A stretch of DNA of 64,000 bases from an uncultured Ruficoccus sp. (GTDB lineage Bacteria > Verrucomicrobiota > Verrucomicrobiia > Opitutales > Cerasicoccaceae). The translations under genes and the position numbers were made by a program. The notes below the pieces were generated by a model. It made no database searches and had not been told where the DNA came from. It worked only from the letters and a program-made list of their open reading frames with translations. The stretch lies in NCBI GenBank assembly GCA_965140785.1, contig OZ223518.1, forward strand, positions 32,001-96,000. Direction: 5' to 3'. Of the stretch, positions 28,944 to 55,710 are shown piece after piece. The stretch's first letter is position 1. Each line of letters begins with the position of its first letter.

Positions 28944-29678
28944 TTAGTTATAGCGTTGGGTAATGTCTTCGACGGCCTGGCTATAGGCTTTGGCTTTCAA
29001 CTCTGAGACTTGGTCGTCATGTTGTGAATGGCGCGTATAACTGGCGGTGTTGGTCTTGTCCTCGTAGGAAACTGGCGTGAGTAAATCCCAGTCGCCAGAA
29101 AGCGTATCGATGATGGCAATCTTCAGTCTGATTCTCATCTGCTGCTGCTCATCCGGCACGGCTCCACCGACGATGGGGATCCATGACACGGCCTTGGTTG
29201 CATAGGCGTCCTGCGTGATTTCGAGCTGACCCCAGTACACGATTATGTAGGGGGCACCACCTCTTGCAGCTGCCAGCCGGAGGGATTTGTCTAGCGGCGG
29301 GACTTCATTCTTGGAGTCAACACCCGTCCACGCTCGACTATTGCCGTTGTCAGGAACTCCGCTCAGCGGGATCACATCATAGGCATTCTTCAGCCCATTA
29401 AGCATGCCATTGTCCGGAAAGGCCGCTCCAGACTGAATCAACACGATGGTATCACCATGCTTCAGGCCGACCTCTCCGGAACCGTTTTTGAGGGCATTGG
29501 CGATTTCCTGCTCGGTTATCTCATTCCCGCTGGCGCTGATTCCCAGGACAGAGAGCTCATTGAGCTCACCTTGATAGCCCCTGTCATGGTGGTAGCCCGC
29601 GTCTGAGATCGAGCGGGTTTCGCAGCCTGCAAAAAGCAGGCATGCCGTTAGCGCCAGGATGGTGATGGTTGTTTTCAT
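28944..29678 (-). CDS. Hypothetical lipoprotein inserted between sufB and sufD
   Basis: Lipobox FAG-C; codon usage less GC3-biased than the suf genes. Confidence 0.75.
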   Translation of the reverse strand: MKTTITILALTACLLFAGCETRSISDAGYHHDRGYQGELNELSVLGISASGNEITEQEIANALKNGSGEVGLKHGDTIVLIQSGAAFPDNGMLNGLKNAYDVIPLSGVPDNGNSRAWTGVDSKNEVPPLDKSLRLAAARGGAPYIIVYWGQLEITQDAYATKAVSWIPIVGGAVPDEQQQMRIRLKIAIIDTLSGDWDLLTPVSYEDKTNTASYTRHSQHDDQVSELKAKAYSQAVEDITQRYN

Positions 29679-29718: not shown

Positions 29719-31131
29719 TTAGCCGACGGAGCCTTCCATCTCCAGGTCGATGAGTCGCTTGAGCTCGACGGAGTACTCCATGGGGAACTCGCGCACGAGG
29801 TCGTTGACGAAGCCGTTGACGGCCAGGCTCATGGCCTCGCCCTCGTTCATGCCGCGCTGCTGCATGTAGAAGATCTGCTCGGCGCTGACCTTGGAGACGC
29901 TGGCCTCGTGCTGGACGCTGTTGTGGTCGCCGCGCACGTTGATGGCCGGGTAGGTGTCGGTGCGGCTGTTGGTGTTGATGAGCAGCGCGTCGCACTCGGT
30001 GTTGTTTTTGCAGCCCTTGAGGTGCTTGGGGATCTGGACCAGTCCGCGGTAGCTGGAGCGGCCCTTGCCCACGCTGATGGACTTGGAAATAATATTGGAG
30101 GTGGTCTCGTCGGCGGCGTGGACCATCTTCGCGCCCGTGTCCTGGTGCTGGCCGTCGTTGGCCAGGGCGATGGAGAGGACCTCGCCGCGGGCCTTGCGGC
30201 CCTTGAGGACGACGCCGGGATATTTCATCGTCAGGCGCGAGCCGATGTTGCAGTCGATCCAGCGCACCTCGGCCTCTTCCATGGCCATGCCGCGCTTGGT
30301 CACGAGGTTGAAGACGTTGTTGGACCAGTTCTGCACGGTGATGTACTGGATCTTGGCGCCGGGCATGGCGATCAGCTCGACCACGGCCGAGTGCAGGGTG
30401 GCCGTGTCGAACTTCGGGGCGGTGCAGCCCTCCATGTAGGTCATTTCGCTGCCCTCATCGGCAATGATGAGCGTGCGCTCGAACTGGCCGAAGTTCTCCG
30501 CGTTGATGCGGAAGTAGGCCTGGAGCGGCTGGGCGACCTTCACGCCCGGGGGCACGTAGATGAAGCTGCCGCCCGAGAAGCACGCGCTGTTGAGCGCGGA
30601 GAATTTATTGTCCCCGCTGGGGATGACCTTGCCGAACCACTTTTTGAAAATCTCAGGGTACTCGTGCAGCCCCTCGTGCGGGCCGACGAAGATCACGCCC
30701 AGCTCGCCCAGCTCCTCCTTCATGCGGGAGTAAACGGCCTCGGAGTCGAACTGCGCCTCGACCCCGGCGAGGAACTTGCGCTCGCTCTCGGGGATGCCGA
30801 GGCGCTCGAAGGTCTGCTTGACGTCGTCGGGCACCTCGTCCCACGAGCGGCTGGCCTTCTGACCCTTGGCCAGGTAGTAGCGCACGTCGTCAAAGACGAT
30901 GTTCTCCAAGTCCTTGGAGGCCCAGTTCGTCGGCAGGGGCTTGTCCTGGAAAATCTTGAGGGCGCGTTTGCGGAACTCGCGCACCCAGTCGGCTTCGTTC
31001 TTGGCGTTGGAAATGTAGTCGATGGTGTCCTGGCGCAGGCCGATGCCGGCGTCAAAGGCGTAGTCTTCGGCAAAGGAAAAGTCACCTTTGCTGCGGTCGA
31101 TGTCCAGATCGGGTGTGGCAGTGTCGCTCAT
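29719..31131 (-). CDS. sufB: Fe-S assembly protein SufB
   Basis: [44 protein letters not shown]. Confidence 0.97.
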
Positions 31132-31135
31132 AATA

Positions 31136-31177
31136 AGTTTAAAAGTTTAAGGTTTGAAAGTTTGAGAGTTGAGGGAG
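31136..31177. repeat. Degenerate 8-mer array (GTTTGARR) directly upstream of the sufB start
   Basis: gtttaaaa gtttaag gtttgaaa gtttgaga gttgaggg. Confidence 0.85.
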
Positions 31178-31227
31178 TGGTCTGTTGCACGGCTGTATCC
31201 AAAATGTCGATACGCTATTGATTCTTC

Positions 31228-32235
31228 TTAACGGTCCAGCACGATGCGGTAGCGGGCCTGGCCGGAGCGCAGGTGCTCGAAGGCATCGTTGATCTTGTCC
31301 ATGGGGAAGTGTTCGGTCACAGGCGCGATCTGGTGGCGGGCGCAGAACTCCAGCATATCGCCGACGGTGGCGGGGCTGCCCATGGGGGAGCCACTGATGG
31401 AGAGCTGGCCACCGATCAACTGGAAGGGGACGAACTCGCTCTGCGGCGCGGCGCCGACGAAGTGGAGCTTGCCGCCGGGGCGCAGGGCCGAGAGGTACGC
31501 GCCCCACTCGAGCCCGACATTGACGGTGACGAGCACCATGTCGAGCGAGCCCTGGATCTTCTTGACCGCCTCGGGGTCGCGGGAGGTGACGAAGTGGTGC
31601 GCACCCATTTTGCGGGCTTCCTCCTCCTTGTCCGGGCTGGAGGAAAACGCCGTCACCTCGCAGCCCCAGGCGTTGGCGAACTGGAGGGCGAGGTGGCCGA
31701 GGCCCCCGATGCCGACCACGCCGATGCGCTGTGTCGGGCGGATTTCGTTGATGACAAAGGGATTGAACACCGTGATGCCACCGCAGAAAAGCGGGCCGGC
31801 CTTGGCCGCGTCGAGCGCGGCGGGCAGCGGGATGGCCCACTCGCTCTTGCACACCGCGTGGCTGCCGAAGGCACCGTGTCGGCCCACGATGGTCTGCTCC
31901 GCGCCGGAGCAGCGGTTGTGGTGGCCGCTCATGCACTCGCGACAGTGCATGCACGAGCCGGAGAACCAGCCCAGGCCTACACGCTGCCCAAGCTGCAGGT
32001 GGGAGACGTGGTCGCCCTTCCACAGGATCGTGCCAATGGCCTCATGCCCGCCGACGAACGGATAGGCCGACAGCCCCCAGTCGTTGTCGAGCATGGACAG
32101 GTCGCTGTGGCAGATACCGCAGTGCTCAACCGCGATCAACACATCGTCCGCGTCCAGCTCGTCCGCCTTGTACTCGAAGGGTTCGAGAGCGGCTTTGGCT
32201 TTCGGGGCGGCGTAGGCTTTGATCGTTGTGCTCAT
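31228..32235 (-). CDS. Zn-dependent NADPH aldehyde reductase / alcohol dehydrogenase (Ahr/YjgB-like)
   Basis: CGICHSD, GHE, structural C-x2-C-x2-C-x7-C, GIGGLG, ARYRIVL. Confidence 0.9.
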
Positions 32236-32714
32236 TAAGCGTTTGAAGGTTTGAGAGTTTGAGGGTTTGAGAGTTGATGGGCGGGGCTGAGGTCGAACGC
32301 TTCGTCTGGTTCGCGGAGTTCAGCGGGCTTGAATTTCATGCCCTTGATCTCTGACTTCGCCAGGTAGTTGATGAAACCGCTCAGGAGGGTTTCGGCTTCG
32401 GAGGCGAGTGCATAGGCCAAGTCGAATTGCTTTTGAGAGACATAAGACACGTCCAACATGACGTAGAGCTGGCTCTTGACTTCGGCCAGCGAGCCGCGGG
32501 CAATGTACAGGAACTGCAAAAACTCCCGGTTCCCACTGCGCCCAAAGCCCTCGGCGATATTAGACATGACCGAAATACTGCTGCGCCGAATTTGATCGCA
32601 CAGAGCAAAGTCCCGGACGACAGCTTCGGCGGACGTGAGACCATAGACCAAGCGCGAAAGCTCGCGAGCTTTCTGCCAGGCCTGAATCTCTTCAAATGTC
32701 CGGATGCTTGCCAT
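32235..32714 (-). CDS. Four helix bundle protein (23S rRNA IVS protein / TIGR02436-like)
   Basis: [46 protein letters not shown]. Confidence 0.93.
32241..32277. repeat. 8-mer array inside the 3' end of the four-helix-bundle gene
   Basis: gtttgaag gtttgaga gtttgagg gtttgaga gttga. Confidence 0.9.
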
Positions 32715-32720
32715 CAACTG

Positions 32721-32760
32721 AACTTTCAAACTCTCAAACAATAAACTCTCAAACTCCCTC
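32721..32760. repeat. 8-mer array in inverted orientation (TCTCAAAC) between sufC stop and four-helix-bundle start
   Basis: aactttcaaactctcaaacaataaactctcaaactccctc. Confidence 0.9.
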
Positions 32761-32769
32761 AGCCTCGGC

Positions 32770-33528
32770 TTAAGCCGACGCGGGGGCCAACTCTTCCTTG
32801 ACCCAGTCGTAGCCCTTTTCCTCGAGTTCGAGGGCGAGGGTCTTGTCGCCGCTCTTGACGATGTGGCCGTTGTACATGACGTGGACGACGTCCGGCACGA
32901 TGTAGTCGAGCAGGCGCTGGTAGTGGGTGATGACGAGGAAGCCGCGATCGGGGCCGCGCATCTGGTTGACGCCCTCAGCGACGATGCGCAGGGCGTCGAT
33001 GTCGAGGCCGGAGTCGGTCTCGTCCATGATGGCGTACTCGGGCTTGAGCATCATCATCTGGAGAATTTCGCAGCGCTTCTTTTCGCCGCCGGAGAAGCCG
33101 TCATTGACCGAGCGGGAGGTGAAGGAGCGGTCCATCTTGAGCTGGTCCATGGCGGCGTAGAGCTCCTTGTAGTACTTCGTGGCGACGATGTTCTCGCCCT
33201 CGGGCAGACGGGCCTGAACGGCGGCGCGGATGAAGTTGGCGATGGTCACACCGGGGATCTCTGCCGGGTACTGAAAAGCGAGGAAGAGGCCGGCGCGGGC
33301 GATTTCGTCCGGCTCCATACCGACAATATTCGTCCCGTCGAGGAGGGCTTCGCCACCGATGATGTCGTAGTCCTCGTGGCCGGCGAGGGCCTTGGCCAGG
33401 GTGCTTTTACCGGTCCCGTTGGGGCCCATGATGGCATGGACCTCGCCCTTGGGAACGGAGAGGTTGAATTCCTTAAGGATCGGCTTGTCGCCGATACTGA
33501 CGGTCAGGTTACGGATATCCAGTGACAT
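32770..33528 (-). CDS. sufC: Fe-S assembly ATPase SufC
   Basis: [40 protein letters not shown]. Confidence 0.97.
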
Positions 33529-33534
33529 GATGTG

Positions 33535-33574
33535 TAAATGGCTGATTGTTAATTGTTAAATGGCTAATTGATAA
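33535..33574. repeat. 7/8-mer AT-rich array directly upstream of the sufC start
   Basis: taaatggc tgattgt taattgt taaatggc taattga. Confidence 0.75.
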
Positions 33575-55672: not shown

Positions 55673-55710
55673 GTTTGGGAGTTCAGAGTTTGAAGGTTTG
55701 AAAGTTAAGG
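55673..55710. repeat. 8-mer array (GTTTGAAR) upstream of the VOC gene start
   Basis: gtttggga gttcaga gtttgaag gtttgaaa gttaagg. Confidence 0.8.

Follow-up and report, generated by a model that had tools for sequence, protein, structure and literature searches.

Results

Organization of the sufC-sufB locus

The window analysed here is a stretch of 64,000 nucleotides from an uncultured Ruficoccus sp., whose genome is denoted G000, with other G numbers standing for its family relatives. The features of the locus all lie on the minus strand, and their order on the mRNA is sufC (32770..33528; TIGR01978, 346.8 bits), arm 1, a four-helix-bundle (FHB) ORF, arm 2, a dehydrogenase gene, arm 3 and sufB (29719..31131; TIGR01980, 617.9 bits). 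Arm 1 is a 5' array of GTTTGAGA-type units downstream of the stop of sufC, the upstream host gene (core 32721..32754), and is followed by the FHB gene, a TIGR02436/PF05635 gene encoding 159 amino acids (32235..32714, with the ATG at 32714 and the stop at 32235; PF05635 111 bits, TIGR02436 107 bits). The FHB unit is closed by arm 2, a 3' array of TCTCAAAC-type units (32241..32277) upstream of the dehydrogenase start, and the dehydrogenase itself is an Ahr-type NADPH-dependent aldehyde reductase, a zinc alcohol dehydrogenase (31228..32235; NF047908, 496 bits against a cut-off of 470). Arm 3, again of the TCTCAAAC type, is a solo 3' array that forms the leader of sufB, the downstream host gene (core 31137..31172), and no 5' partner array for it is present in the same spacer. 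A preliminary description of this DNA had placed an array after the sufC stop and complementary arrays before the dehydrogenase and sufB starts; all three are found where it put them, and its identification of the FHB, alcohol dehydrogenase, sufC and sufB genes was upheld by the profile matches. In the window, arm 2 falls inside the last codons of the FHB ORF and the FHB stop overlaps the dehydrogenase ATG, unlike in G002 and G003, where the FHB ORF ends ahead of arm 2.

The neighbours identified by profile are a Fur-family gene, SufC, Ahr, SufB, one gene without identification, SufD and SufT. The gene between sufB and sufD (28944-29678, 244 aa, no Pfam or NCBIfam match) is present in G000 and G001, and an empty arm pair takes its place in G002 and G003. 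A solo 3'-type array of a third, 7-base repeat family, absent from the preliminary description, precedes the sufC start (33535..33571); this family has 12 matches in G000 and forms an inward pair at gltB-gltD in G003. A further solo 8-mer array of the same family as the arms was observed at 55673-55703, about 10 nt ahead of a minus-strand gene start.

Pairing between the three arms

Repeat searches recovered arm 1 and arm 3 as a 38-nt inverted pair of 82% identity with 1544 nt between them, and arm 1 and arm 2 as 19-nt inverted pairs of 89% identity with 445-453 nt between them. The predicted RNA duplexes have energies of −40.3 kcal/mol for arms 1 and 2 and −40.0 kcal/mol for arms 1 and 3, and neither value was reached by any of 100 composition shuffles (means about −21; best −32.6 and −35.9). 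The earlier proposal that the upstream arm could pair with either downstream arm is therefore possible on energy grounds, both duplexes being predicted at about −40 kcal/mol. In G003, the arm 1-arm 3 duplex is predicted at −30.6, a value that some shuffles match or beat. When the transcript is folded up to the dehydrogenase start, arms 1 and 2 form 29 pairs, and the minimum-energy fold of the whole insert divides arm 1, with 22 pairs to arm 2 and 20 to arm 3; arm 3 folded alone has no structure. As arm 2 is transcribed before arm 3, arm 1 would be expected to pair first with arm 2, and the modelled pairing with arm 3 is possible and likely a by-product. A switch between the two pairings is possible, but no observation here requires one.

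A small hairpin centred on the stop codon of the upstream gene was seen at several FHB sites (32765..32778 on the minus strand of the window, at the sufC stop; loci L064 and L044); at one of them, G013 and G012 differ by a compensatory change. A role of this hairpin as a general insertion scar is ruled out, since a stem of at least 6 bp occurs at 2 of 29 array-followed stops versus 206 of 2823 controls and is thus not enriched at empty arrays.

The FHB unit and the dehydrogenase are inherited separately

Of the 16 family genomes, 15 allowed the sufC-sufB interval to be read, G010 being too fragmentary (loci inspected for inserts: L012, L018, L031-L041 and L232). An FHB gene is found at sufC in five of the 15 (G000, G002, G003, G012 and G013) and the dehydrogenase at sufC-sufB in seven (G000-G004, G009 and G011), the two occurring together in three. 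The dehydrogenase stands at the junction without the FHB gene in four genomes (G001, G004, G009 and G011), and the FHB gene without the dehydrogenase in two (G012 and G013). In G001, the dehydrogenase begins 28 nt past the sufC stop, and this spacer carries neither FHB gene nor arms; in G004, empty arms of a different unit are present. The FHB gene of G013 lies directly upstream of sufB and that of G012 is followed by a DJ-1/PfpI-like gene (read by eye), which occurs without arms at the junction in six other genomes. The preliminary description had called for relatives with adjacent sufC and sufB in order to define the junctions; the two genes are adjacent in 15 genomes of other families, and G001 provides an arm-free and FHB-free junction.

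Concordant trees were obtained for sufB, sufC and the dehydrogenase, and in them G001 falls among the FHB carriers (support for its closest branch, which is not a clade test, of 92/93, 84/95 and 88/95, respectively). A fast tree of 83 rows groups the five sufC-linked copies of the FHB gene in a single clade (support 96) and places the three cysD-linked copies described below in a separate one.

Capture of the dehydrogenase as cargo, as first proposed, was not borne out, because each gene occurs at the junction without the other (four and two of the 15 genomes) and the dehydrogenase tree follows that of sufB; across the 15 family genomes, the dehydrogenase does not come and go with the ends. 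The dehydrogenase is a resident, separately inherited neighbour. What stands of the proposed repeat-delimited element, similar to an intervening sequence, is its first part: the FHB gene and its inverted arms come and go as one, as seen in G001, and a cassette reaching from arm 1 to arm 3 with its cargo does not. The data support a unit made of the FHB gene and arms 1 and 2 that is gained or lost whole. The sufC-linked FHB gene looks like an old resident that was lost repeatedly rather than a recent jumper, and the simplest history would be a single old insertion followed by several losses, the alternative being repeated transfer to the same site among kin.

A third arm, in the local unit, is present in all four genomes that have an FHB gene and an intervening gene (G000, G002, G003 and G012) and is decayed or absent in the family genomes without FHB. 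This pattern favours the preliminary description, in which arm 3 ends the element, but is also expected from the genome-wide array family described below. Arm 3 is an ordinary solo array of the kind that precedes many start codons, also in FHB-free operons. In the arm-less G009, G011, G014 and G015, inspection by eye shows a purine-rich, Shine-Dalgarno-like sufB leader where the arm-bearing relatives have the array. The junction also gathers unrelated genes, namely the dehydrogenase and, all read by eye, DJ-1/PfpI-like and lipoprotein-like genes and a HEPN-like pair in G004.

Arrays of the same family are dispersed over the genome

A strict scan of the genome found 42 arrays against none in three genome shuffles, and a profile scan found 63 against 1-2 in a block shuffle; the latter is the usable null, reversed-word controls being invalid for array scans because the units read alike backwards after rotation. 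The 63 arrays consist of 28 in 14 inward-facing pairs and 35 solo arrays, the three of the sufC-sufB locus included, and no outward-facing pair was found among them. According to rough gene calls, 38 of the 54 stronger arrays abut a called stop or ATG: 12 of the paired arrays follow a stop, 10 precede a start and the remaining 5 are unassigned, and the 27 solo arrays divide into 13 before an ATG, 3 after a stop and 11 unassigned. The arrays are thus a genome-wide family and are not special to the sufC-sufB locus. Shine-Dalgarno-like motifs precede only 58 of 1533 roughly called ATG starts in this genome.

The spacers of the 14 empty pairs measure 46-164 nt and share no body, with no all-against-all match at E 0.05; against the rest of the genome they gave nothing beyond chance-level matches of 16-18 nt. 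The arrays are weakly clustered, with 8 of 40 sites lying within 5 kb where 3.0 were expected (p 0.04). No target-site duplication was visible by eye at sufC or gltB-gltD, where the empty relatives are too diverged. Arm-to-arm joints in the contigs were not taken as products of excision, as their sides are short (20-36 letters), some with other letters between; they most likely stem from empty pairs elsewhere.

Several junctions are hybrid, combining 5' and 3' arms of different families that are unable to pair (G000:C27:22846, C29:10616 and C30:39958, and fur-sufC of G012, L038). Their layout suggests that arms may be gained or replaced one side at a time, and junctions with an arm of another family account for only 3 of the 24 solo arrays outside the sufC-sufB locus. 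The solo 3' arms at the fur-sufC junction belong to a 7-mer family in G000 and G003 and to the 8-mer family in G012 and G013, and a microcompartment-like operon of G012 has five junctions with solo or paired arms and no FHB gene within the 5 kb read. Two arrays have grown to about 12-13 perfect units (G000:C18:108002-108097 and C10:695981-696073), probably via slippage.

The arrays follow their FHB gene

The 8-mer arrays depend on the presence of the sufC-linked FHB gene, and this is the main result of the present work. The pattern GTTTGARR has 72, 73 and 52 matches in G000, G002 and G003 and 4 in G013; the remaining 19 of the 23 genomes scanned, which include G001 and G004 (both 98% complete), have no match. 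Its variant GTTCGWAR has 24 matches in G012, 13 in G013 and a single one in G004, and is missing from the remaining 10 of 13 genomes. The five genomes with the sufC-linked FHB gene have abundant 8-mer arrays; where the gene is missing, such arrays are decayed or nearly absent, and G001 and G004 retain short, decayed remnants at orthologous junctions (judged by eye). The sufC arms of G013 have drifted to another unit, and its genome carries GTTCGWAR arrays.

A second FHB gene of the genome, with inverted arms of 7-mers, lies between cysD and cysN (G000:C26:43700-44140; L060, L243). One gene upstream of it, a solo arm of the 8-mer family was observed ahead of cysD. G000, G002 and G012 carry the cysD-linked gene, and G001, G003 and G004 lack it at this site. 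Its 7-mer, which was predicted in advance to follow the gene, has 18, 36 and 10 matches in the three carriers and none in the three genomes without the gene. For the second FHB gene and its 7-mer, the dependence is the same, with exceptions: G008 (95% complete) and G015 (72%) have 11 and 9 matches, with no matching FHB arms among the copies read, and matches also occur in G013 (2) and G014 (1). G003 retains the 8-mer gene and arrays and has lost the 7-mer gene and arrays, and G001 is without both. The genomes compared are kin and not independent, and the co-occurrence rests on a few losses.

The FHB protein and the five-unit count

Among the five sufC-linked FHB copies, dN/dS is 0.07-0.25 in 8 of 10 pairs, the other pairs being saturated, and the gene is under purifying selection. 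In a profile search, the protein of the window matches only PF05635, with no match to the Pfam bAvd family, which is matched by 8 of 60 aligned FHB relatives (best E 7.6e-6); its first 128 residues contain 15 basic and 14 acidic ones. It matches the structure 2GSC with an E value of 6e-14. The solved relatives 2GSC and 2RLD both have five chains, and PMC4990558 describes 2GSC as a homopentamer. An RNase III gene is present in the genome.

Five anchored units were counted in 34 of 54 arrays of the genome. Across phyla, five is also the mode, in 41 of 121 upstream and 36 of 122 downstream arms, with a mode of 1 in the shuffles; this count admits a terminal part-unit, and a limit on stem length would give a similar peak. 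Other families depart from five, with four full units in 9 of 13 arrays of the 7-mer GTKCTT family and counts spread from 2 to 12 in the GTYATT family. The match in number suggests one repeat unit per subunit of a predicted five-subunit ring.

Inverted arms are widespread among FHB relatives

We fetched the loci of 160 relatives, of which 154 had enough flank, near-duplicates being kept in. In 133 of the 154 testable loci, across phyla, the inverted flank match was unreached by any of 50 shuffles, so the association of inverted arms with FHB genes elsewhere, a point raised in the preliminary description, is supported. Within the family, each FHB clade has its own repeat unit, with the exception of one divergent clade without visible repeat arms (L053, L062, L063, L319, L320 and L321). 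Extra arrays of the same unit were found within 5 kb of the FHB relative at 30 of 92 loci, with 71 matches; the reversed-word control gave 40 but is invalid. Two distant relatives with inverted arms (L073 and L154) were seen between the sufS-like and sufE-like genes of a different suf operon, and at L154 an empty array pair lies two genes downstream.

Genes of another type, GxxExxY, have similar surroundings: all five GxxExxY loci of G000, one of them split in two frames, carry inverted short-repeat arms of their own (by eye; G000:C34:83800, C3:994, C25:201567, C10:105511 and C39:231619). The gltB-gltD junction is empty in G001, contains an 8-mer pair in G000 and G002 and a 7-mer pair in G003, and is occupied in G004 by a GxxExxY-like gene with its own arms.

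Discussion

Proposed mechanism

We propose, with a probability of roughly 55%, that the sufC-linked FHB gene acts as a REPIN/RAYT-like master gene with dependent arrays, in a unit built like an rRNA intervening sequence but placed in an mRNA. The FHB protein would recognise its own repeat unit and likely maintains or spreads the approximately 60 gene-less arrays at gene junctions, arm 3 among them, probably via a predicted five-subunit ring that binds five-unit arrays. Paired arms would form an RNA stem of 30-40 bp, which is likely cut by the encoded RNase III by analogy with rRNA intervening sequences. The 3' arms appear to persist longer than their 5' partners, a difference that likely reflects a role as unstructured leaders of the following gene. 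This reading is based on the anatomy of the unit, the co-occurrence of gene and arrays, the purifying selection and the inward-only pairs located after stops and before starts. Counting against it, the 14 spacers share no sequence, unlike copies of one mobile element; the GxxExxY genes carry similar arms, so another protein could write the arrays; arrays and gene do not match in G008, G015 and G013, with unit counts of the 7-mer families off five; and the near balance of basic and acidic residues in the first 128 positions is unlike the strongly positive Avd barrel.

A bolder extension can be put forward only tentatively: PF05635 proteins in general may be sequence-specific five-subunit rings, each reading a five-unit array of its own repeat and directing a novel installation of arms, one side at a time, after stops and before starts. 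If so, one small gene would reshape both the sites of RNA processing and the leaders for translation in dozens of operons, and the installed arms would replace Shine-Dalgarno leaders and decay once the FHB gene is lost.

Three other explanations were weighed against the master-gene reading. In the first, which we consider unlikely, the FHB ring serves the host as an RNA- or DNA-binding regulator of a domesticated regulon, the arrays are its operators at gene junctions and nothing is mobile; TRAP offers an analogue for such a ring-shaped regulator. The site-faithful vertical inheritance of the FHB gene, its low dN/dS, the unique spacers, the five-unit mode and the decay of arrays following gene loss would all fit with operators, but not the range of states at gltB-gltD, which depending on the genome is empty, occupied by an 8-mer or a 7-mer pair, or home to a GxxExxY-like gene. 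The array-bearing genes are also without an evident common function, and the FHB gene is often lost with no visible substitute.

Quite doubtful is the second possibility, in which the arrays are written by a different agent, such as a GxxExxY nuclease, a reverse transcriptase or a host repair enzyme, while the FHB gene is a passenger whose co-occurrence with them reflects shared ancestry. A shared outside agent would not predict that G003 lost only the 7-mer gene with its arrays and G001 both genes with theirs, nor that each FHB clade has its own unit, although we know of no catalytic activity for PF05635 and both the similar arms of the GxxExxY genes and the mismatches in G008 and G013 point in its direction. 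The third, the preliminary description's single element from arm 1 to arm 3 with a captured dehydrogenase and a two-loop switch that masks one of two translation starts, is improbable, for despite the two strong predicted duplexes, the use of both in the whole-insert fold and the third arm in four of four genomes, the enclosed gene varies (dehydrogenase, dehydrogenase with a second gene, or DJ-1/PfpI-like) and is in each case also found arm-less, the trees are vertical, an FHB-free operon has solo 3' arms at successive junctions, and the transcript already folds arms 1 and 2 together by the time it reaches the dehydrogenase start. Cargo and switch are the weak part of that proposal.

Implications

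Solved structures exist for the very common PF05635/TIGR02436 family, which to our knowledge has not been assigned a function. Under the master-gene reading, this family gains a candidate ligand, namely arrays of five units of a particular 7- or 8-mer, for which the unit of the other gene is a built-in specificity control. The relatives are natural knock-outs, as there are two FHB genes in one genus, each lost in some members together with its own arrays, and the locus adds a predicted RNA processing site in an Fe-S operon. Our literature search, supplements aside, brought up no account of operon-borne FHB genes with inverted tandem arrays. Tandem inverted repeats, together with small genes of these families associated with them, are reportedly the subject of a recent paper from the REPIN field; should that paper exist, the system as a whole already has a name. 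The present work adds that the cargo model is rejected, that each of two FHB genes is lost together with its arrays, that the spacers are unique and that the arrays most often count five units.

Comparison with known systems

In REPIN/RAYT systems, a vertically inherited RAYT gene is flanked by its own repeats, which have many gene-less intergenic copies and are lost with the gene. The locus described here is alike in having a single vertically inherited FHB master gene flanked by its own repeats, and gene-less copies that follow the gene, with the exceptions of G008, G013 and G015. It differs in encoding a four-helix bundle, matched only by PF05635, instead of an HUH tyrosine (Y1) transposase, and in arms that are tandem 8-mers abutting stop and start codons and not palindromes. 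MITEs are short gene-less units with inverted ends, and composite cassettes carry cargo between such ends. Short gene-less units with inverted ends are likewise found here beside a gene-bearing form, but the dehydrogenase does not travel with the ends, and the 14 gene-less spacers are unique, unlike in either REPINs or MITEs.

A relation to Avd of the diversity-generating retroelements (PMC6182149) is indicated by the pentameric family and by the bAvd matches of some relatives; the protein of the window is itself without such a match, and its net charge is near zero versus the strongly positive barrel of Avd. No reverse transcriptase is present among the identified sufC-sufB neighbours.

In construction, the unit resembles the ORF-bearing 23S intervening sequence of Coxiella burnetii, for which PMC4990558 describes a PF05635/S23p-family ORF in the loop of a terminal 28-bp stem, tandem heptamers ahead of the start codon and cleavage by RNase III. 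The window similarly has its PF05635/S23p ORF in the loop of a stem of complementary ends, here a predicted one of 29 pairs and −40.3 kcal/mol. Unlike the rRNA case, the unit lies in a protein-coding operon, between sufC and the Ahr gene, and not in an rRNA precursor; its ORF is under purifying selection instead of decaying; and dozens of gene-less arrays are found elsewhere in its genome. The unit is thus built like an ORF-bearing intervening sequence and behaves like a REPIN/RAYT system, yet fails a defining feature of each.
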